A stretch of 61,645 bases of DNA, counting the filler, from Globobulimina sp. (lineage: Eukaryota): NCBI GenBank assembly GCA_003354225.1. It is 18 parts of 18 records of this genome, joined end to end, with 100 filler letters (N's around TTAATTAATTAA, not from the genome) between each part and the next. Parts side by side here need not be neighbours in the genome. Positions count along the whole stretch, not along the records: positions 54,888 to 58,216 come from PIVH01003070.1; 17 more parts are not named here. One strand, given 5' to 3'. Both the position numbers and the translations under genes were made by a program. Each line of letters starts with the position of its first letter. The first letter of the stretch is position 1. The notes under the pieces were generated by a model. It was not told the DNA's origin. It was given only the letters and a program-made list of their open reading frames with translations, and ran no database searches. Positions 741-59,129 of this stretch are shown here, one piece after another.

Positions 741-3332
741 CTAATTTTTATTTTTGACACCGCTATAACTTCCATCCTGTTCTGCCCATTGCCGACATGC
801 ACGTAATATCATCGCCGATATACTGTCATCGTCCAACTTTGCCTTCTCCATAAATTTCACGCGTTGCTGCAAAGTGCAACGTTCGCGCATCTTATCACTG
901 TTATTAATAATCCATGTAATCGAATCATATGCTTTTGGATCTTCCACATATTTCAATGAATGAGAAAATACCGATTCATCGAGTTTGCGATCAAACGTAT
1001 ATCCAATGCCCAAATCTAATAATAATAAATATTGCGGTGTTTCAAAATGCTTTCAAATGACAGCATTTTTATGGTTTGAAACTGCCAAAATGCGGCAGTT
1101 CAAAAGGCATTTAATGTCAAAATGGATTCAGTTTCTTTGTATTATAATATTTTAGTTTGAAACTGAAACTATAATCTCAGTTTCAAACTAAATATTTGCT
1201 TATAACACAAAGCGACGCCGCTTGCGGCGTGGCGAGCGCGCCGCTTTGTGGTATGATCATAGATTTTGTTTGCGCTGAGATTATAGATTCAGTTTCAAAC
1301 TAAAATATTATAATACAAAGAAACTGAATCCATTTTGACATTAAATACCTTTTGAACTGCCGCATTTTGGCAGTTTCAAACCATAAAAATGCTGTCATTT
1401 GAAAGCATTTTGAAACACTGCAATATTTATTATTATTTAATACTGCTACAAACCAATATCAATAACATTCGGGCGCCCAGTAAGATTTGCAATCTTTTCT
1501 TTCTCCACTTCCACATTCTTATTCTCCCTCATCAATTTCAACGTCTCCAATTCCACCGTTTGTCTCAATGTATCCACAGTGGCCGCCAAATTGCCATCCA
1601 TTTTGTTTCCTTTGTCATTTTTTTTTTGTAATTGGTTAATTTTCTTCGATGCCGCATTCATCGTAATGCGTGTAAAATCATCCGGCTGCGCTTTTGATGA
1701 TGATAATAATGTATTGATATTATTTTGCAATTTATTAAACAACACGTTTAAATGGTGGGTCTTATCCTCCTGGTGCCCACAGCCAGCTGCCAATTTCTTA
1801 AACACGCGTTCGGACATCATTTTGTTAATGGGATCATATGCAATGATATCCAATTTGTCGCGTAACACATTAAATATTTGCGCAATCCTTTGATGTACGG
1901 CTGCGCTGCGGAGTCCATCCGGAATAAACGATACTCTATATTCATGCGCCTGCTCAAATACTAACGACGCAGCGACCAACCAATGTATCAAAAACTGCAT
2001 TATCTCAGTGGGAATGCGGTAGGACACGATTTTCTCCTTCCCACCCTGCGCTTTCAACAAAGCCATTCTCTTTGCGTACCATTTTTCTAAGACGCGTTGC
2101 ATGCTATGCGGTTGCCTGACAATACGCACCAAATCTTCGATTCTGTCCCCGCCAGCGCCGCCTCCCAAAACTATCTCTTTCTCTTCATCGAACTCGCTCT
2201 CTGCTGCCTCATTAGGATCAAATACAAATGCTGCTTCGCGATGGGCGTCATATCGATGTTGCGCACGTGGACGAGATGGCTTGGATGAACCTGTATAGGA
2301 TAGTATATTATAGGATAGTATTAGTATAGGATTGTATAGGATAGGATTGGAGACATTATTACATTTTTTAGATTCATACGGCGCCAAAACGAGATGGGAT
2401 TTGGATGGATTTTAAATGGGATTATTCATTTTTATGAGATAGAAATCAGTTTCAAACTGGGCAAAGATTCTAGTTTCAAACTATGATAAAGACATAGTTT
2501 GAAACTGAAACAATAAAATCAGTTTAAACTAGAATCTTTGCCCAGTTTTAAACTGATTTCTATACCATAAAAATGAATAATTCCATTTAAAATCCATCCA
2601 AATCCCATCTCGTTTTGGCGCCGTATGAATCTAAAAAATGTAATAATGTCTTTATGTTTGGCGGTTTCAAACCTGGATTGCGAGTACGCGGCGCCCGAGA
2701 AACACCGCTAATAATTGATAAATTGCATAATTTCTCCACTTCTTCAATGCTTTTCCATCCATCAAAGGTTTGCTTCTTTAATATGTTCCATTTTATTTTC
2801 TTCTTCTTCAAATACGCGGTCACCACACCTTTCGCCGGATTCGTCATCTTTTCTCTCGAATAAATCATACGCGTATAAAAATTATCGTGTCGCACCTGCT
2901 TTTTGTACGCCAATAATATGTTAAATCGCTCGTCGTCGACATCGAGTTTAATTTCCTCGAAATCGGGCACCTTCGCCAGTTGATTTTTTGTGGCAATGCG
3001 CCGATACCCATACAACGCAAAATCTTGCTTAATACCGCGGGTTGGATCGATCTCCATTTCCCGTATTCTTCCGCCATGTCGGTCGCCGTGTTTTAAAGGC
3101 GGGATATTCCTGTTGTTGCTATTGGCGATATGCGAATTGTCGTCGCTCCAATTAAATCCATAAAATCGTTTCTTTTTTTTTCTTCGTTTTCTTTGCGGCA
3201 AACTGGGCCATGGCACAGTAATATCATTTAATACATCATCGTCGTCACTAAAATTCATATGATCCGCGGAAATGGATGGTTTCGGCGCAGGTTTCGGTGC
3301 TGTTGCTTTTGGGGATGGACTGGTTTGCTGCG
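741..3332 (-). CDS. Hypothetical protein, 5'-truncated, 3 exons (3332-2673, 2290-1454, 1015-741)
   Basis: Three ORF-track pieces join in frame through GT-AG introns 2672-2291 (CCAG/GTTTGA...TACAG/GT) and 1453-1016 (ATTG/GTTTGT...TTAG/AT), both phase 1. The frame is open to the contig end. Confidence 0.75.
1018..1437. repeat. Intronic long inverted repeat (about 163-bp arms) with GC-rich double-hairpin core
   Basis: 1018-1180 versus 1275-1437 are reverse complements with about 3 mismatches. Core at 1206-1250. Confidence 0.95.
2351..2651. repeat. Intronic long inverted repeat (about 130-bp arms)
   Basis: 2351-2481 versus 2521-2651 are reverse complements with a few mismatches. Nested AGTTTCAAACTATG/CATAGTTTGAAACT hairpin at the centre. 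Confidence 0.95.
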
Positions 3333-3432
3333 NNNNNNNNNNNNNNNNNNNNNNNNNNNNNNNNNNNNNNNNNNNNTTAATTAATTAANNNNNNNNNNNN
3401 NNNNNNNNNNNNNNNNNNNNNNNNNNNNNNNN
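3333..3432. other. Artificial 100-nt contig linker (first of 17)
   Basis: 44 N + TTAATTAATTAA (stops in all six frames) + 44 N. It recurs at 6765, 10197, 13628, 17059, 20490, 23920, 27350, 30780, 34210, 37640, 41070, 44500, 47930, 51359, 54788 and 58217. Contig lengths fall steadily from 3332 to 3329 nt. Confidence 0.99.
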
Positions 3433-3726
3433 TATTCAATATATATTTGAAATTTATGGAAATTTCCACTTGTATAAGGCGTATTATATACACACGAACG
3501 TGCTTTAATATTTGGTCCATCAGTGTGGTTTTTCCATGATCTACGTGTGCTACAATAGCTACGTTGCGTATATCATTGCGGTATTAGGTAAAGCAGCGAC
3601 GTGTCAGATCACTCGGCTTTGTTCCACAAAAAGAGAAACACTTTCGTACTATGTGAAGCTGATGATTTGGTAACATGATGTTTCTGTAAACTAGCTCAGA
3701 AAAAACAATCAACCTCACTCCTCACT

Positions 3727-5005
3727 ATGGCAAACATCTCAGACCAGCCGCAAATTGAGCCAATGTGGGTGATTGCGATGCTATTTTGTGGCGCTGTTGG
3801 TGTCGCCATACATTTATTAATTATTTTCAAAATGATTCCTCACTTGAGGTCGAATCCCGCAGTCAAAGGAAAAGGCATTGTATGGATAAGCGGTTGTATG
3901 ATAATTTTTGTATTAAATGGCTTAGCGTGTGCAATTTGGCTACTATTCCGGACCAATTTAGTAATAAATTTAACAATAGCTTCCTGTCAATTTATTTATG
4001 TTTCCAACTTCGTCTGTTATTTTGTAGCCAAATATGTTTTGCACTGCTTACTAATCGGTCGAATATATTTAACCTTCGTCAACACGCCGTATCGAATGCA
4101 TTTAATGACGTTTGCACTCTTCGTTTCTGTTCTATCGCTTCATTTTTTGGTATCAACATCAATTTGGGTCTATGAAGTCACTCCGCATATTTTGAAAGGT
4201 ATTTTTCCCATAAATATAAGCTACAAAAACTAAATACTTATCCTTGTCACCAGGCACCTGGATGCAATATGAAATTTGTACATTATTCAGTAATGAAGTA
4301 CGGCAAACTTCTCTCGTCAAAGCCTGCGCGATCTCGATTGGTGTGGAAGATTTTGTGGTTGGCTCTATGACAATGTATATCTTATTAAAGCGGTTGAGAG
4401 TGATTGTTGGCGGCACGCATGATTATGATTTGTCGTTGAAATCCATTCGTTATGGGATTGTGGGTGGCACTGCAATGATATCGACATTATTTCTTTTTAC
4501 TTTGGCCATACCATTCTGGCCAAATGTTACCTTTATTATAGCCATTGATGCAGTGGTTAATAGTTTATGCATATTTTGCGTATTAACCATTGGCCATCGC
4601 ACCTATTATTATTTATGCTTTCCCTTTCGGATTCTGTTCGAATCTGAGTATATTAAACAGAACGATACGCAAATCTCAAACTCCAATATTGTTATGATTA
4701 TACATAAACAGTTAACTCCGATTCCACCTGAAAAAAAGCACGAATCTACATTTGGACTCAACAATGCGACTGTTGCCACCGCAGTGGATACGAATATTAG
4801 TAAAGAGAATTTTGCTGCGGTCGCATCATTGTTATTTGCCACTGCACCAAAAACGGCAAAAACAAATAAATTGGCATTGAGAAAGAGTATGAGTGCAATG
4901 AAAAAGAGAGTCAATAAATATTCGCCTGTGCAAGACATGAACGCACCATCTAGCAATTTAAAATTAAGTGTTTCAAGTTCTGCACCTGTACCAAAGCGTA
5001 TATAA
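3727..5005 (+). CDS. Multi-pass (about 7TM) GPCR-like membrane protein, intron 4199-4253
   Basis: ORFs 3727-4233 and 4244-5005 join in phase 1 across a 55-nt GT-AG intron. About 7 hydrophobic segments, with IDAVVNSLCI in the last helix. Confidence 0.75.
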
Positions 5006-5209
5006 AGCATTTTAATCAAAATTTGTATAATAAAATAAATATTATTTTGTGTGTGGCATGTTTATTTTTGAATATATCAACTATTTTTATTTGTGTTTGT
5101 CATGTTTTTCAATTTGTATACTTTTAATTTTGTTTTCCAACTGTTTCTCAACTGTTTTCGCTTGTTTTTCAACTGTGAATAACAATAAAAAAAGCTCTAA
5201 CAATTAATC

Positions 5210-6294
5210 ATGGTGGATGTGATAGCAGTGTTTATTCACTTAATAACAGATATAATGGCAATATCGGTCCTATTGTTCATCATATATAACTGCAAAAAAA
5301 AATCAACTGATCCAAATGCGGCTTTCCACAAATCGATCATTCAATGTACAAACGCAACAATTACATTCTTCTCATTAAACCTTATAATCGCAGTGATAGC
5401 ATCCTTATTCGTGGTAATACACACTTACAAAGGAGAGACAGACCGAACACCGCCATTGCGTATCATAGCTGGCTTTCTTTGGTGTGTTGGACAAAGTATG
5501 TTGTACTGTATATTATTTTTGTTTATATTTGCAATATAATCAAGTAAACATTTTCAAATAATCCCAACTGTACATGTACAGTTTCGATGTTGATGGTATT
5601 TACAATGAGAGTGGAATTTGCCTTTAAAGGCACCATTTATTGTTATTCTAGCAAAACATTAAAAATATTAAAATATTGCATGGTTTACATTATTGTATCC
5701 TGCGTTTTTCTCAATATTGTTGTATTCGTTGTTGTTTTAGGAAAAGTAGAAAGTCTGATGAATGTTGCTTTTATTTTCGTTATGTTTTGGGGTTTCTCCG
5801 TGTTGCTGTTTTCAATAACATTGATGTTTCTGTTTTTGCGAAAATTGAACCAGGTTCAAAACGACATCCGTGTCATCGAAAGAGAAGATTCTAAATCGAC
5901 ATCATTTTCAAGTATGACTCGAGAAAACAGAAAGTTTGTGAAGGAATTGAATAAAGTTTCATTAAAATATACAATATTGTCAAGCACATCCATTGTTACA
6001 TCGTTTATAGCAATCGTACTATTTCTAATGTTGGGAGTTACGGGATTTACTCGATATATATTACTGTTTCCATCGATTGATAGTTTTATTAACATCATTT
6101 GTATGTATTTGACATTCAGTCATCATTACATTTATAATAAATTATGTATTCATTGTGAACAGTGTTGTTATTTTATATGTGCACGTTTTCAATGCTGTGT
6201 CATGACAGATGAGAATGAACAACAATTAGGGGAAACTATACAAAATGAGCAGGTAATTCAGGTTGAATTAGCAGAGGAAACACAAAATGTATAA
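5210..6294 (+). CDS. Multi-pass (about 7TM) GPCR-like membrane protein, intron 5508-5581
   Basis: In-frame joining across a 74-nt GT-AG intron. IDSFINIICMYL and Y..LC..C motifs are shared with neighbouring paralogues. Confidence 0.75.
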
Positions 6295-51458: not shown

Positions 51459-54400
51459 CGTGGCTTTTATGACAGAGAGAAGTGGTTTTTCAAAGAGATT
51501 GTGGATGCGACCATATGTTGTTCAGCTGCCCCACCCGGTGGCGGCCGGTCGGAATTAACCGAAAGATTTACGCGACATTTTAATGTTTTATGCGTACCGA
51601 AGCCATCGATGAAAGTGCTAACATTGATATTTCAATCGGTATTGAATGGATATTTGCAAGGTAATAATTTTAAGGCAGACATACAATTATTATGTAAACC
51701 CATCGTGCAATCCACCATTGACTTATTTTTTGATATTACACAAAGTTTGTTACCCATTCCTGCAAAGTCTCATTACACCTTCAATTTGCGTGACATTTCC
51801 AAAGTATTTCAAGGCATTTTAATGTGCAATGCCAGCACAGCGAAAAAGAAAGAAACATTTATTAGATTATGGATCCACGAATCAATGCGATGTTTTCATG
51901 ATCGATTAATTAATGACGAGGACAGGAATTGGTTTTGTGACGCCATCATACATTATCTACAGAAGAATTTTAAGATCCATTCCATGCAAAAAGAGCAAAT
52001 ATTTGATGTAAATCCGATAATTTGGGGCGACTTCTTTAAAGGTGGTGGCGATAAAATGTATCAAGAATTGGATAGAAGTACAGACAGCGGCGGATTTAGC
52101 GCATTAAGCAAAATATTATGTGGATATTTAGATGATTATAATATGGAATCTTCCTCGCCAATGAATTTAGTATTTTTCAATGATGCGATGAAACATTTAG
52201 TTCGCATATCACGTATTTTACGGCAGCCGCGAGGCAATGCGATGTTAGTTGGTGTTGGTGGTTCGGGGCGGCAATCTTTGACCAAATTGGCATGTTTTAT
52301 TTTAGAATATAATTGTTTCCAAATTGAATTGCGTCGCGGTTACGATTATATTATGTTTCGTGATGAATTAAAAGAACTAATGATGTGTTCCGGCGGTGAA
52401 GGCAAACAAACTGTGTTTTTATTCAACGACACACAGATTATCGATGAGCGCTTTTTGGAGGATATTAACAATATATTGAATTCTGGTGAAGTGCCAAACT
52501 TATTTACGGAAAATGACGAATTCCAACGCATTGATGATTTGCTACATCCATTTATGAAAGAAAATGACATTGCAATCACGCCCGATAATACATGGAATAC
52601 ATTCGTCCAACGAATACGCGATAATTTGCATTTAGTTCTGTGTTTCTCGCCCGTTGGCCATTTATTTCGAACCAGATGTCGCATGTTTCCGTCCTTAATA
52701 AATTGTTGTACCATCGATTGGTATTCAAAATGGCCGAAACAAGCACTGTTATCCGTATCCAACAAGTTTTTATCCGATTTGCACTTGCCTGTCAACTGCG
52801 CAATAAAAGAGAACTTATCGTTAATGTGCGAGAAGGTACATTCTTCGGTACAATTAGTATCGGATCAATTTTTTAATCAATTACGCCGCAAAGTATATGC
52901 CACACCCAAGTCATACCTGGATATGATCAAATTATATCTAAAAATGCTGGAAACTAAACGCAAAGAATTGGGGCAAAGAAGGAAAACATTATACAATGGA
53001 TTGACCAAATTAGAGGAAGCAAACAGTGTTGTTGGCACTTTGCAGGAAGAATTAACTAAATTAGCACCACAATTAGTGGTAAAACAGAAAGAAGCGGCTG
53101 AATTATTGGATAAAATTGCTGTGGACCAAGGCGAAGCAGATAAGGTGAAAGAAAAAGTGGGAGCAGAAGCAAAAATTGTTGGCAAACAAGCTGCGGAAAC
53201 CAAAGAAGTCCAACAAGACGCACAGGCAGATTTAGATAAAGCATTACCAGCATTGGAAGCTGCGTCCACGGCTTTAAAATCATTAAATAAATCGGATATC
53301 ACTGAGATAAAATCAATGGCCAAGCCGCCCGCCGGTGTGGTTATGGTGTTGGAGGCAGTCATGATTCTATTAAATGAGAAGACGGCATGGGACAATGCAA
53401 AGAAAGTGATGGCTGGAGCTGGGTTTTTGAAAACTTTGCAAGAATTTGATAAGGATAACATCCCAGATAAAAAAGTGCAAATATTAAAGAAAAAGTATAC
53501 CTCCGATGAGGAGAATTTCAGTGTGGAAAGAATGCAGAAAGTGTCGATTGCTGCCACTGCGTTATGCAAATGGGTGCATGCAATGGTATTATACTCGGAA
53601 GTGGCCAAAACTGTGGAACCCAAAAGACAAAGATTGGCGGAAATGAACCACGCACTGAATGCCGCCAATGCGGAATTAAAAACAAAACAAGACGCATTGC
53701 AAGAGATTATTGACAAAGTGACCGCATTGAAAAAACAATGTGATACCACTTTATCAGAGAAAAAGAAATTGGAATTCGAGTCTGATCAATGTAAGCAACG
53801 CTTAGTGCGCGCTGAAAAATTGACGGTTGGCTTAGCGGAGGAACAGATTCGATGGAAAGAACAGGAACAAATATTACGGCACGAAATTGAGGACTTGGTC
53901 GGCGATGTATTTATATCGTCAGCATTCGTGTCATATGCATCGCCATTTACTGGCGTATTTCGAGATAACTTAATAAAGATTTGGATGAATAATAAGATAT
54001 TTGCTGAAATACCACATACGGATATTAATAAGTTTTCATTTACCAAAATCTTAGGAAATCCATTAGAAATTCGGCAATGGAATGGTCACAGTTTACCGAC
54101 TGATGAAGTTTCCATCCAATCGGCGATCATTGCAACCAAAGCGGAGCGGTGGCCGTTGATGATTGACCCCCAAAACCAGGCAAAAACGTGGATAAAAAAT
54201 ATGGAGAAATCTGTTGGTAATTTGCATATCGTCAAATTGGACGATCCCAATTTGTTACGTGTTTTGGAAATTGGTATTCGAAATGGCGAACCTGTGCTGA
54301 TTGAAGATATTGGAGAGACATTGGATCCGTCCATCGATCCTATTTTAAATAAAGCGACCTTCAAAAATGGTGGGCGTACACTGATTCATTTGGGTGACAG

Positions 54401-54787
54401 TGATATTGATTATGATGAAAACTTTCGATTTTATATTTCTACAAAATTGTCCAATCCGCACTATTTGCCGGAGATCAGCATTAAAGTGACTTTGATCAAT
54501 TTTACTGTGACCAAAGGCGGTTTAACTGAACAGTTATTAGGCGATGTGGTTAAAAAAGAGAGGCCGGAAATCGATCAAAAGCGATCGTTATTAATCAAAC
54601 AAATGGCTGCGGATAAACAGGAATTGAAAAATATTGAAAATACCATTTTGAAGTTATTATCGGAGTCGAAAGGCAATATTTTAGATGATGTGGTGTTGAT
54701 TGATACGTTGACAAAATCTAAAAAAACCTCTGCTATTATTAATCAGCGAGTGTTCGAATCTGAAAAAACTGAAAAAATGATTGAAGA
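51459..54787 (+). CDS. Axonemal dynein heavy chain, internal fragment (end of AAA3, AAA4, stalk/MTBD, AAA5)
   Basis: PPGGGR, HYTFNLRDISKVFQG, GNAMLVGVGGSGRQSL, FPSLINCCTIDW, RWPLMIDPQ and NPHYLPE. Confidence 0.98.
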
Positions 54788-54889
54788 NNNNNNNNNNNNN
54801 NNNNNNNNNNNNNNNNNNNNNNNNNNNNNNNTTAATTAATTAANNNNNNNNNNNNNNNNNNNNNNNNNNNNNNNNNNNNNNNNNNNNTG

Positions 54890-54961
54890 AATGAATATAA
54901 AAGCTTGATAATTAGACCAAATAGCACTGCTTCTGTTGTAGTACCTGGTGATACACTATAA
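54890..54961 (+). CDS. C-terminus of an upstream gene (possibly the major capsid protein)
   Basis: Open frame NEYKSLIIRPNSTASVVVPGDTL* ends 2 nt before the protease ATG. The identity is inferred only from typical Maverick gene order. Confidence 0.3.
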   Translation, partial: NEYKSLIIRPNSTASVVVPGDTL

Positions 54962-54963
54962 TT

Positions 54964-55554
54964 ATGTTACGTTATTATCAACTCGTAGAATTGTGTTCTA
55001 GAATAGATTCTGATATAAAACCCAATTTTCGTGGTGTATTTTCCTTTGATAATGTTCCAGATTCCTTATCTATGATTGACCCAAATAAACCCAATTTTCT
55101 AATTTTCAATACAGACCCAAGCACTAAACCTGGCAGTCATTGGGTTGGGACATTCATTGATTTGCAATCTGATACTGTATTCATAGATTCGTATGATCAA
55201 TCACCTCACTATTATGATTTGGAAGATTTCTTTCTGGAAGCAACAGGAGGCGATTACATAACTATTGGAAAGAAGCTACAATCTGATTTTACAAATGTAT
55301 GTTCATTATACGTGCTATTCTTCGGTCACTATCTATCAAAAGGTTATGATTTAAAGAAAATTATGGGCTTAATTCCAGATCATACCAATGTACTCAGAGA
55401 TAAGCATATGGTGGAATGGTTTAACAAAAATTATGGAAAATCGATCAAACTTAATACTCCATTTATTGATTGTAATAAATTTAAACAATATTCAGGTTAT
55501 ACACAATCTTGTAAATCATATGAAAAAATGATATTAGACAGAAAATCTATATAA
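54964..55554 (+). CDS. Adenain-like (Polinton-type) cysteine maturation protease
   Basis: FRGVFS.D, NTDPSTKPGSHWV, FIDSY and LQSDFTNVC. The His, Asp, Gln and Cys catalytic set is retained. Confidence 0.88.
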   Translation: MLRYYQLVELCSRIDSDIKPNFRGVFSFDNVPDSLSMIDPNKPNFLIFNTDPSTKPGSHWVGTFIDLQSDTVFIDSYDQSPHYYDLEDFFLEATGGDYITIGKKLQSDFTNVCSLYVLFFGHYLSKGYDLKKIMGLIPDHTNVLRDKHMVEWFNKNYGKSIKLNTPFIDCNKFKQYSGYTQSCKSYEKMILDRKSI

Positions 55555-55737
55555 AATATTATACAAAAATAAAATAATTATTATAATATATATGTCACAG
55601 AATACGAGTGTACATTGTGCAGCACAATATACTACAACGAATAAACATATAATACATATAATTAGCAGTCACTTCCCAAGACTGTACATTGTACAGTACA
55701 TTAGAACAGCAACAGACAGTCAGTTAACATCTCAATT

Positions 55738-56972
55738 TTAATTGTCCTTTGGCAAAGACAAATCGATACGTTTCACAATACCAGTAAAAGCACGTCCTAC
55801 ATTAATGATTGTTTTTACACTTCCTTTCTTAGCACTCGAATAAACTGCCTGTCTCACTTTTGGTAAAGGCAAACCCAAAATAACGGCTTCACTTTTCTGC
55901 GTATCCTCAGCTATTACAAAAACAACTTTCTCACTAACCCCATACAAAGCAAAATTTGTCAAATTCTTATTAATTTCTATTTCTGATATAAATGAAAGTT
56001 TATAAGATGGCTTAGGGTTGTCGGTTGGTGGAAAAGTAATCGAAATCAGTTGTAGATATCTATTTCTAATACAATATTTTGTTACAGTTCTTATTACTAA
56101 AATTTCATTTGGTCTAGATACAATAAGATCATTTACTAATACTTGATTTCTGATTAATCGATCTTGGGAATCTAATTCCGTCCAAGCTGATGAATTTTCT
56201 TGAAAATGCATTCGCTCGGTAGTTAGCAAGAATGCATTGGTGGAGCGCAATGGCCTGATGTTAAATGCGCTGACTGGCATTTCCATAAAATTGAATTTTT
56301 CCAAGAAAGCTCCTTCACCTAGAATAAAAACACTCATCATCATCATTATCACGTGCATGTCACATGCTTTTCGTCTTCTTTAGAATACCTGTATCACTGA
56401 ATCCGATGCAAGACGACCATGGGTCGACAGTATTGATAGTGAATGAATCAACAATTTGACGACTGTCTTCGCTAACTATGGCCAACTTCCAAAAATGGCA
56501 ACCTTTTTCTTTGCACATCATGAGCCAACCATAGTCATGACCTCTTATTTGATGTACCCGTTCAACTTGATCACCCAATGACACAGCTGACATGAATCTT
56601 TCACTCATATTTGGGAGAGAAAGGACAACAACCAAAATGCGAGCTTGTGACACAAAAGCGATCATGCTGACTGAAAATGACAGATGTGATGATGATGAAA
56701 AATGATAATAAAAAACCTTTTTTATTAAAACTTGAGAATCCGTTTTCGATGTCATGAGAGCGTGATATTTCCATTTGAGAGAATGACAAGATAGGGGTTT
56801 TGTCTCTTTTCAATAATGCTGTGTTTTGCCAAAATGGCATTCCTTCTGTTGTTGGATATGCTCTTTTATTGATAACCCAAACAAAAACATTGTCAAATTC
56901 CAATTTTGCCATGGACTGGTTTGCAACAGGTATTAATTTGTGATGAGGCATGTTGCCATAAGTGGTAGTCAT
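55738..56972 (-). CDS. Three-exon hypothetical protein (372 aa): exons 56972-56717, 56670-56389, 56318-55738
   Basis: Three ORFs join in frame through phase-1 GT-AG introns 56716-56671 (46 nt) and 56388-56319 (70 nt). Spliced length is 1119 nt. Confidence 0.65.
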
Positions 56973-57151
56973 GATGATGATGATGAATAACTTAAAGTAA
57001 AATGATAGCACACAAAACAAAAATAGAGAGAGAGATAGTTTTCATGGAGAATCAACTCCTTGTTGAATAAACAGAAAATGAAGAACATTCAAATAGAAGG
57101 TTTATTCGTTTCCTACCATTTCTAACTAATGAAAATCACCGCTACATTTTC

Positions 57152-57190
57152 ATATAAAAGAGGAATCAAGTCCTTGGGCTATGACCAGTT
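57152..57190 (+). promoter_or_regulatory. TATA box with downstream initiator-like CAGT before the ATPase gene
   Basis: ATATAAAAG about 60 nt upstream of the ATG, and CCAGTT about 30 nt after the TATA. Confidence 0.45.
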
Positions 57191-57212
57191 GTAACATTGA
57201 TGCGCTAAAAAA

Positions 57213-57902
57213 ATGTATGAGTCAATTCAAGATTGGGGGTTTGAATATACAGCTACTGTGCTGCTTCTAGGACCTACGAGGAGTGGAAAAACTACTTTTA
57301 TAGCTAAATGTTTATCAGAATGGTCTAGGATATGTCCGAGTAATCCTAAATTAAAGAAAGTATTGATTTATTATGATCATTTCCAGCCCCTTTTTCGAAA
57401 ACTAAGAGATGAACTACCAGAAACATGTGAAAAGGTGTTCATACAAGACGTGCCTAATGACAAAAATATAAAACTCGAAAAACTTGAGCCAGATGAGGCG
57501 CAAGTGATTGTTATAGATGACTTAGCTGATCGTTTGTCCAAAAGGAATCACATACAAAAACTATTCACAGTAATTAGTCATCATGAAAATGTAACAGTAT
57601 TTTTCAGTAGCCAAGACTTAATGCAAGGAAATGACATAATGAGATGTCTAAGAAAAAATGCTAGCTACATAGTATTACTGCCGGCTTTACGAGCTAATGG
57701 TAATACTGTAGATACTCTGCAGAGAAATTATTTCGCAAAACACAAGAATTTTCTCGAAGCTGTTTTTGATCACGTGATTAGCACTCGGAAATCGGACTAT
57801 ATAATCATAGTGAACACACCTTCAACTCTCATAACTGATCGCTTTCGACTGAAAACAGGTGTGTTCCATGGAGAAACTCTCTACCTGTACAACCCGAAAT
57901 AA
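57213..57902 (+). CDS. A32-like (FtsK-HerA superfamily) viral DNA-packaging ATPase
   Basis: Walker A LLLGPTRSGKTT, Walker B VIVIDDL, LFTVISHHENVTVFFSSQ and RKNASYIVL. Confidence 0.9.
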   Translation: MYESIQDWGFEYTATVLLLGPTRSGKTTFIAKCLSEWSRICPSNPKLKKVLIYYDHFQPLFRKLRDELPETCEKVFIQDVPNDKNIKLEKLEPDEAQVIVIDDLADRLSKRNHIQKLFTVISHHENVTVFFSSQDLMQGNDIMRCLRKNASYIVLLPALRANGNTVDTLQRNYFAKHKNFLEAVFDHVISTRKSDYIIIVNTPSTLITDRFRLKTGVFHGETLYLYNPK

Positions 57903-58201
57903 TGAAGCCTATTTCTAGTGCGATTGTGCGAATTTTAATATCTGATACTGATCCAAAATTGTCAAAAATTCGAAAGTATATACTGAGAGATAAAAGCTAT
58001 AAGGATTGGATTCAATTTTTACAATTTGGTTTGGAAAAATTGTTAACCAACGATCAAATAACTAAAGAAGAACAAATAAGTGTGGTCAAAAATCGAAAAT
58101 TAATTCGGCGATTCAAGAAAGTCAAAAGACCAGCTAATTATTTGCGAATTCATTTGAAAGAACTTAAACCATTGATAGAAATTTTGCTAAATTATGAATA
58201 A
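57902..58201 (+). CDS. Small basic protein downstream of the ATPase
   Basis: 99-aa Lys/Arg-rich ORF with a TAATG stop-start overlap with the ATPase. Confidence 0.6.
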   Translation: MKPISSAIVRILISDTDPKLSKIRKYILRDKSYKDWIQFLQFGLEKLLTNDQITKEEQISVVKNRKLIRRFKKVKRPANYLRIHLKELKPLIEILLNYE

Positions 58202-58316
58202 TTTTTCTGAACATGTNNNNNNNNNNNNNNNNNNNNNNNNNNNNNNNNNNNNNNNNNNNNTTAATTAATTAANNNNNNNNNNNNNNNNNNNNNNNNNNNN
58301 NNNNNNNNNNNNNNNN

Positions 58317-59129
58317 AGTGATGGCATTGAGAGAACACACATTGTTAAAGAATGGAGAAAGGAATTGAATGATCTATTTGCTGATATTGAGATTGGTCCA
58401 TATAAGCAGGAGAAAATAAAAAAAACAGTATTACAGAAAATAAAACTTTTTATGACATTGAATAAGACCGAAGAAGAATATACAAACCCCGTCACCACAT
58501 TGAATAACTTAACATTAAATGAGGTTGTTGATAAATTTAAGATTCCGCAGCAAAGTCGTCATAGAGTGCCATCATTGGTCGGTCAACATGCTATTAGGGC
58601 AAAAATGGAGCTTCCCAAAGATACTGTGTTATGTAGGTATATAGGCTTCGAAATGAGCAATAAAGAATGGAATGAAGTGTTTGATTATTCGAATAGGGAT
58701 GGGATTAATGGAATGTATTTATATAGTTTTGATTTGGATGGCTTAGGAAAGGAAGGAGATATTCCGTGCGTTACTATTGATCCAATTGAAGGTGGCAAAC
58801 AGAAATTGGCTGCCTTGTATATAAACGATTGCAGAAAGGATATTTATGTGGAGAAATTGACAAAAGATGATATGAAGCATCAGAATTGTAAGTTCATTGT
58901 GGTTCTTCTTAAAGGATGGCCAACAGTGTTCGTTATGACTACGAGGAAGGTGCGTGAAGGAGAGGAACTGTTAATAGATTATGGGACTGAATTTTGGATC
59001 TCTGCCAAACAAAACACGCGATGGAATATTATTATCAAAGAAGTGAGAAACTTGTCAGAGCGATATATTGTTAAAGATGTGCAAATTCATAACGTGCACA
59101 AAGGTTTGGAGTGTCATGATTTAACGTAA
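58317..59129 (+). CDS. SET-domain protein, 5'-truncated
   Basis: A..ELPKDTVLCRYIG, ALYINDCR, NCKF and VFVMTTRKVREGEELLIDYG..FW. Confidence 0.88.
   Translation, partial: SDGIERTHIVKEWRKELNDLFADIEIGPYKQEKIKKTVLQKIKLFMTLNKTEEEYTNPVTTLNNLTLNEVVDKFKIPQQSRHRVPSLVGQHAIRAKMELPKDTVLCRYIGFEMSNKEWNEVFDYSNRDGINGMYLYSFDLDGLGKEGDIPCVTIDPIEGGKQKLAALYINDCRKDIYVEKLTKDDMKHQNCKFIVVLLKGWPTVFVMTTRKVREGEELLIDYGTEFWISAKQNTRWNIIIKEVRNLSERYIVKDVQIHNVHKGLECHDLT

Follow-up and report, generated by a model that had tools for sequence, protein, structure and literature searches.

The window analysed here is a stretch of 61,645 nucleotides (nt) from the Globobulimina sp. assembly GCA_003354225.1 (70.2 Mb in 48,370 contigs), in which 18 unrelated contigs of about 3.33 kb are joined by 17 artificial 100-nt spacers. 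One of these contigs, PIVH01003070.1 (C3070; 3,329 bp, window 54888-58216), consists entirely of a piece of a Polinton/Maverick element. It carries the end of a capsid gene, a protease, a packaging ATPase and two further open reading frames (ORFs), with a gene predicted to be spliced lying antisense between the protease and the ATPase.

54888..54961, + strand: 3' end of the double-jelly-roll (DJR) major capsid protein gene (last 23 codons and stop); same final 23 residues as a 450-codon ORF of the overlapping contig C151
54964..55554, + strand: adenain/C5-type cysteine (maturation) protease, 196 residues; catalytic residues, PF00770 in relatives and profile matches
55738..56318, - strand: predicted exon 3 of the antisense gene, all-beta with propeller-like blades; 80% amino-acid identity to the paralogue C33178, dN/dS 0.17
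56319..56388, - strand: predicted intron 2, 70 nt, GT...TTCTAG, phase 1; position shared with a 55-nt GT-AG intron of the paralogue C32757; 56% identity vs 77-83% in exons
56389..56670, - strand: predicted exon 2; 77% amino-acid identity to C32757, dN/dS 0.16, without indels
56671..56716, - strand: predicted intron 1, 46 nt, GT...TTTTCAG, phase 1; matched in position by a 50-nt GT-AG intron of the paralogue
56717..56972, - strand: predicted exon 1, ATG at 56972; 76% amino-acid identity to the paralogue, dN/dS 0.11
56973..57212, no strand: 240 nt separating the antisense gene from the ATPase, the two lying head to head; a shared promoter region is putative, from gene orientation
57213..57902, + strand: A32/FtsK-HerA-type packaging ATPase, 229 residues; Walker A/B plus HH, Q-D and N motifs
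57902..58201, + strand: conserved basic 99-residue ORF, TAATG-coupled to the ATPase; homologues directly after the ATPase elsewhere
58194..58216, + strand: start of a conserved ORF of about 170 residues, continuing on the overlapping contig C275; homologues at the same position in five other contigs

An earlier note on this DNA had named a protease with intact catalytic residues, an A32-like packaging ATPase, a small basic ORF with a TAATG overlap and an ORF ending just before the protease. All of these are in place. The overlap lies at 57900-57904, and the ORF that enters from the start of the contig stops at 54961, 2 nt upstream of the protease ATG, and is the 3' end of the capsid gene. What the note did not see is the spliced gene, which fills half of the contig.

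All nine aligned relatives from the assembly have the protease residues H59, D75, Q106 and C113 unchanged, and PF00770 matches six of nine family members. Profile searches returned African swine fever virus (ASFV) S273R (E 1e-6), adenain (E 1e-5) and SENP8 (E 1e-5). By its sequence alone the protease would not be told apart from cellular Ulp1-like proteases; its gene context does make the distinction. In the ATPase, Walker A corresponds to G20-T27 (GPTRSGKT) and Walker B to D102-D103, and H123/H124 and N149 are conserved. Taken singly, the protease of C3070 scores E 0.0046 against Peptidase_C5 and the ATPase E 5.5e-4 against generic AAA, both under the Pfam cut-offs, and Pox_A32 was found for one of 12 aligned ATPase relatives, which is not the C3070 member. 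The names therefore rest on motifs, relatives and gene order. The 99-residue ORF (23 K+R, 11 D+E) has no Pfam match; its homologues (38-86% identity) lie directly 3' of the ATPase in seven other contigs. PHROGs gave nothing at E<0.04 for six proteins, and scans of IMG/VR with the ATPase and with its alignment gave 6 and 74 pattern matches, none of them confirmed.

Linked contigs and gene order

Two further contigs extend the element. C151 overlaps the left end of C3070 over 322 nt with 6 differences (98%) and C275 overlaps the right end over 102 nt with 1 difference (99%). Over the three contigs the gene order is integrase, penton candidate, basic core-like ORF, DJR capsid, protease, the antisense spliced gene, ATPase, the 99-residue ORF and the 170-residue ORF, followed by a convergent pPolB-like gene. 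With a DJR capsid, protease, ATPase, rve integrase and pPolB, five core features, the element is a Polinton/Maverick. The earlier note had proposed such a module and had named, among what would count against it, the lack of a linked capsid or pPolB gene. A capsid gene and a pPolB-like gene both turned up when the contig ends were extended, along with the integrase. The order capsid-protease-ATPase recurs elsewhere in the assembly and in public metagenome contigs; the five metagenome loci, all from a single public assembly and 89-98% identical to sister families of the assembly studied here, may not be independent.

C151 holds a 112-nt hairpin, four unnamed ORFs, a Bcl-2 gene (E 4.2e-16), the rve integrase (PF00665, E 5.5e-11), a 295-residue penton candidate, a basic protein of 103 residues (36 K+R) and the 450-codon capsid ORF. 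In the 351-codon frame of the integrase Pfam shows only rve at E<=0.05. The penton candidate, located between integrase and capsid, matches just one of three other candidates, at E 5e-4. The product of the 450-codon ORF has 661 relatives at E<=0.001, to most of which it is only 20-29% identical, and a word-based search with it gave 0 matches among 4,242 candidates. Folded with 98 relatives, it gave a protein model of pLDDT 93 that matches the DJR capsids of iridovirus, PBCV-1, mavirus and Sputnik (Foldseek best E 7e-18, TM about 0.6). On this model, the ORF is identified as the DJR major capsid protein.

The Bcl-2 gene of C151 (3024-3527, minus strand) has TWGR at BH1, where we take NWGR to be the usual motif, and lacks a hydrophobic tail. 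Its best PDB matches are Bcl-xL/Bcl-2 (E 2e-12). Its last residues are CTIM and those of sister copies (L109, L062) are CCIII, which makes a CaaX-type lipid anchor likely. The four unnamed ORFs near the left end (C151 328-3023), for which Pfam gave no match, include two ORFs of about 300 codons, back to back and distantly similar-looking, together with a small Cys/His ORF whose motif 'CPGC...LSQRDHDLC' is also present in other elements.

C275 carries the 170-residue ORF and, on the opposite strand, a polymerase-like gene in many pieces. Positions 1765-5793 are matched in changing frames by intronless pPolBs of the assembly (tblastn; 18-44% identity; best E 1e-11), which are themselves PF03175-positive. 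Four of the breaks in this gene have counterparts in paralogues; each is a predicted GT-AG intron (51-61 nt), and the counterparts have other lengths (54, 68, 54 and 57 nt). A blastn self-search of C275 found no copying of one intron sequence. Capsid, protease, ATPase and integrase are each encoded by a single ORF. In the polymerase gene, the longest of the intron candidates (C275 2835-3005, 171 nt) is G+C-rich and contains a perfect 12-bp hairpin, with a fold z of only -1.76. Rfam gave one match on C151, C275 and C3070, far under the gathering score and on the terminal hairpin, and none for the 171-nt candidate.

Ends, copies and host

We consider C3070 to be the morphogenesis block of a multi-copy, integrating Polinton/Maverick of the eupolintovirus type whose host is an animal co-sequenced at low depth, and we give this reading a probability of about 0.72. 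On four contigs of the assembly (C23717, C36228, C38428 and C239) a common sequence begins exactly at AGTAGT, after four unrelated flanks. A 17-nt end pattern gave 4 matches vs 0 for the control. (AGT)2 is the commonest end motif of Mavericks (PMC8097293). Because the four ends have different flanks, the clade integrates. One flank is unique in the assembly and one belongs to a small dispersed repeat family on contigs without recognisable genes. Positions 81-139 of C151 match the inner part of the AGTAGT end repeat at 81% over 59 nt. C151 and the sister element L109 begin at the same base, share an imperfect hairpin over positions 1-112 (139 nt at 96%) and then diverge; the assembly probably broke here within a terminal inverted repeat, of which this start would be the inner part. 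The earlier note had left open an endogenous or a free virus. For the clade the four ends favour the endogenous form; the ends of the C3070 copy itself are not assembled.

The family of the C3070 element is multi-copy. In sequencing run X1, 39 Logan contigs lie on this stretch of the element, 15 at >=99%, five at 95-99%, nine at 90-95% and ten below 90% identity. This run holds 0.79 of the sequence words and may be the source sample, so its matches are not independent support. In the assembly itself, matches were obtained for 28 of 37 ATPase candidates, 31 of 35 protease candidates and 34 of 40 pPolB candidates. Runs X3 and X4, filed under the same sample, contain nearly none of the element, with matches of 18-35 nt in 2 of 30 bins for each run, which fits a passenger organism and, without a host-gene control, is no proof of absence. 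The runs listed as carrying the sequence include none of RNA.

An animal host is favoured because of the Bcl-2 and BEL/Pao matches in the assembly. For Bcl-2 there are 35 matches among 37 candidates, several of them beside integrase, penton-like or ATPase genes, and for Peptidase_A17 (BEL/Pao) 19 among 20. BEL/Pao is an animal family. Among the best 120 of 560 relatives of one BEL/Pao match, 26 are named by organism, of which 24 are animals and two carry labels of bacterial metagenome-assembled genomes. Bcl-2 is described as arising in basal metazoans (PMC8998228), and its homologues are accessory genes of adintoviruses (PMC8502044). Classical Maverick-Polinton capsids are almost only metazoan, and those in protist data have been flagged as possible host contamination (PMC10120064). 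The earlier note had offered a foraminiferan or a co-sampled eukaryote as host; the latter, in the form of an animal, is the more likely, and a foraminiferan-like main organism fits less well.

Several observations weigh against this reading. The end overlaps are imperfect, so C151, C3070 and C275 may derive from different copies of one family, and no Logan contig spans the stretch. The outer ends of the C3070 element and any target-site duplication (5-8 bp in Polintons/Mavericks) are not assembled. In the Pfam search no piece of C275 matches a polymerase family. Identity inside the predicted polymerase introns (77-95%) is not clearly under that outside (85-92%), and only length changes mark them. 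None of 20 capsid relatives looked up carries an organism name. No animal cox1 was found in the assembly, where PF00115 has 10 matches, nine of them nitric-oxide-reductase copies and one a non-animal cox1. The one cytochrome b does not look animal. Nuclear receptors (zf-C4) have 0 matches, there is only one homeodomain, and no small-subunit rRNA is among the matches listed in the assembly. This marker pattern would fit an animal at low depth, of which only repeats were assembled, or an assembly filtered for recognisable contaminants.

The leading alternative keeps the same kind of element but has no integrated copies: the DNA would come solely from virus particles, or be extrachromosomal, in an animal of the sediment or food. 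C3070 has intact core ORFs, neither end of this element is seen joined to host DNA, and the searches found no mitochondrial and no single-copy gene of an animal. A separate run, from a marine metagenome, also has pieces of 78-166 nt, with 0-5 differences, in 6 of 30 bins. However, the sister AGTAGT ends are joined to different flanks, one a dispersed repeat, the presence of BEL/Pao retrotransposons suggests that the assembly includes genomic DNA of an animal, and the copies range from <90% to >99% alike, with a stop codon in one paralogue. We regard free virus as unlikely.

A little less probable again is integration in the foraminiferan-like main organism, which would have taken up the animal-type Polinton clade together with Bcl-2. 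C3070 has a G+C content of 0.335, like most contigs of the window (0.31-0.38 in 16 of the other 17), and no cellular animal marker was found. Rhizarians can hold thousands of endogenous polinton-like capsid genes, as in Paulinella (PMC10120064). The animal nature of the Bcl-2 and BEL/Pao families speaks against this host. The CpG ratio is 0.57-0.94 in five element genes vs 1.07-1.21 in three of four other window ORFs, lower in the element, with the SET ORF at 0.83 in this small sample. No junction with a protist gene was found, and the flanks do not name the host; the two ends of one insertion are never on one contig.

For the animal-hosted Polinton/Maverick the life cycle can be sketched from Polinton biology. 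The pPolB would copy the linear genome from its inverted ends by protein priming, and the integrase would insert the element into the host genome. Capsid and penton would form an icosahedral shell, which the ATPase would fill and the protease mature. The predicted GT-AG introns would imply that the genes are transcribed in the nucleus and use the spliceosome of the host. Bcl-2 most likely keeps the infected cell from entering apoptosis.

The antisense gene between protease and ATPase

The gap between protease and ATPase is 1,658 nt in C3070 vs 41-58 nt in 9 of 9 close relatives (seven from the assembly, two from a public metagenome) and 86-157 nt in three distant relatives, measured there between partial matches. 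Twenty loci were tested for protease and ATPase together and 13, C3070 included, had both. The gap of C3070 is filled by the antisense gene (56972-55738), for which three exons of 256, 282 and 581 nt and 372 codons are predicted from the DNA. The paralogues C32757 and C33178 have both intron positions, and indels are confined to the introns. A 33% homologue on C38114 lies antisense directly after the protease. Three unnamed ENA proteins, out of 6,220 candidates, are 48-60% identical to the product. A search of the assembly with exon 2 found only the one paralogue. The dN/dS values argue that this is an accessory gene kept under purifying selection, and one sub-lineage may have acquired or lost it at this position between the protease and ATPase genes.

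It is very unlikely that decay left these ORFs as fragments, or that host DNA was inserted here recently by chance. The splicing is read from DNA sequence, exon 1 of C32757 has one in-frame stop and one low-depth contig lacks 68 nt of exon 2. Against decay, both breaks are GT-AG in phase 1 and are common to a paralogue, the indels fall in introns only, dN/dS is 0.11-0.17 over all three exons, and the homologue on C38114 has the same position and orientation.

The antisense protein has no Pfam family over the cut-off, no PDB sequence match and no usable Atlas match. Exon 3 alone, modelled from six sequences, is nearly all beta (pLDDT 61), and most of the top 50 rows in both structure searches are propeller-containing chains by title. 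The signal is weak: no Foldseek match reaches E<=0.001 (best E 0.025), and the best VIA Z, 7.5 (rmsd 3.3, 107 aligned), is below 8. The length would fit a six- or seven-bladed propeller. No hydrophobic signal peptide is seen by eye, and for this reason we lean, by a modest degree, towards an intracellular beta-propeller scaffold that would bind a host protein. A virion surface or receptor-binding protein is the more doubtful assignment.

That the protease and ATPase on either side are cellular Ulp1/SENP and FtsK/AAA genes clustered by chance, to which the near-equal SENP8 and adenain profile scores and the generic AAA matches of the ATPase lend some colour, can be dismissed, given a capsid gene that ends on C3070 itself, its capsid fold, the linked integrase and pPolB, and the same gene order in at least nine other contigs.

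Relatives, neighbouring contigs and significance

The animal Polintons/Mavericks (eupolintoviruses; vertebrate set in PMC8097293) have the same pPolB, rve integrase, DJR capsid, protease and ATPase, compact blocks of core genes and the same AGTAGT end motif, which is found here in sister elements. The intact vertebrate Mavericks are described as intronless (PMC8097293), whereas here several GT-AG introns are predicted in the pPolB-like gene and the morphogenesis block is interrupted by a spliced gene. Adintoviruses share the adenain, FtsK-like ATPase, rve integrase, PolB, Bcl-2 accessory gene and animal hosts (PMC8502044, PMC11071296). They are defined by an OTU-like PolB N-terminus, a BLAST-reciprocal hexon and an integrase with a C-terminal chromodomain (PMC8502044, PMC11071296). 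The capsid structure matches an adintovirus protein at 9% identity. Term searches of these papers, supplements aside, found no mention of spliced genes. To the virophages (Lavidaviridae) the capsid fold is no closer than to other DJR capsids, with mavirus and Sputnik matched at 10-11% identity.

Spliced genes or divergent polymerases have been reported in other elements. Nematode Mavericks likewise carry a spliced accessory gene inside the element, and their core genes are intronless (10.1101/2022.07.12.499685). Their cargo, however, is a protease or a kinase placed between the left inverted repeat and the integrase; here it lies between protease and ATPase and looks propeller-like. The VSR-bearing pPolB2 Polintons of molluscs and a marine nematode likewise have divergent polymerases in elements with shared ends, suggesting polymerase exchange (10.1101/2023.08.22.554363; about 22% identity between types here), and a term search of that study found no spliceosomal introns. 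In dinoflagellate polinton-like viruses, spliceosomal introns also lie inside elements, but these are copies of active introner transposons in a protist (PMC12166617), and the introns described here are short and AT-rich. The literature searched, supplements aside, contained no case of an intron-rich polymerase combined with a conserved spliced gene within a morphogenesis block. Judged by listing, it also contained nothing on foraminiferan Polintons or on an adintovirus propeller gene, and a search on BEL/Pao returned no paper; adintovirus supplements may list spliced or propeller genes.

The assembly contains several sister elements. On C239 and C36228, ends belonging to the AGTAGT repeat family are followed directly by an intronless pPolB of 1,453 codons that is only about 22-25% identical to the intron-rich polymerase of C275, and a polymerase exchange within the clade is possible from these sequences. 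C151 and C275 have no repeat in common by blastn. C3830 carries a divergent histone H3 (PF00125, E 5e-19) and Bcl-2 beside Polinton ATPase and protease genes, and C1973 has, in the same setting, an ORF that we take to be NADAR-like. Because similar genes adjoin Polinton genes on these two contigs, C6889, with H3, NADAR and Bcl-2, is probably viral. Accessory genes of C3566 (L109) and C940 include a dUTPase (E 2.5e-14), two nucleoside-kinase-like ORFs and membrane proteins; C940 is joined at its far end to bacterial-looking genes. In other Polinton families (L043, L047, L113, L115) capsid or ATPase frames are broken in an intron-like manner, whereas C806 has an intronless pPolB of 1,099 codons. 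The intron load therefore varies by family and gene.

C3070 is bounded in the window by two spacers:

54788..54887, no strand: artificial spacer (N run with TTAATTAATTAA), not biological
58217..58316, no strand: artificial spacer, not biological

Dynein and SET genes were considered as flanks and rejected; they are on separate contigs and, because the parts of the window are unrelated, are no true neighbours. The dynein heavy chain fragment, recognised by eye, occupies 51501-54787, the SET-domain ORF (E 1.3e-8) 58365-59129, and a multi-pass membrane protein of 772 codons 59330-61645. The contig at 48030-51358 encodes a Cys-rich membrane protein of 645 residues and has a G+C content of 0.49 vs 0.31-0.38 in the rest; it is possibly from another organism. 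Elsewhere in the assembly, one cox1 (L069), which we take to be ciliate-like, has a long insertion, and NorB-type nitric oxide reductase is present in many copies, intact and frameshifted (PF22085, E 3e-44). Many NorB copies are known from denitrifying foraminifera, and given these copies the main organism looks like one.

For protist virology these results advise caution. The dozens of Polinton, Bcl-2 and BEL/Pao contigs here are probably from a co-sequenced animal and would be mis-assigned to foraminifera. It is improbable that a foraminiferan genome carries an active animal-type Polinton clade with Bcl-2, histone H3 and spliced accessory genes acquired from animal prey or neighbours. If true, a foraminiferan host would mean that a nuclear DNA virus had jumped between kingdoms and had carried animal regulators of apoptosis into a rhizarian.

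The morphogenesis module itself is already well known. The antisense accessory gene family and its physical link to an intron-bearing pPolB and Bcl-2 are new. The antisense gene represents an unnamed conserved protein family inside the virion-assembly block, and an intron-rich polymerase with spliced accessory genes would mean dependence on the host spliceosome. Polinton core genes have been treated as intronless and mined with prokaryotic gene callers (PMC10120064), and for that reason a clade with intron-rich polymerases would be under-counted.

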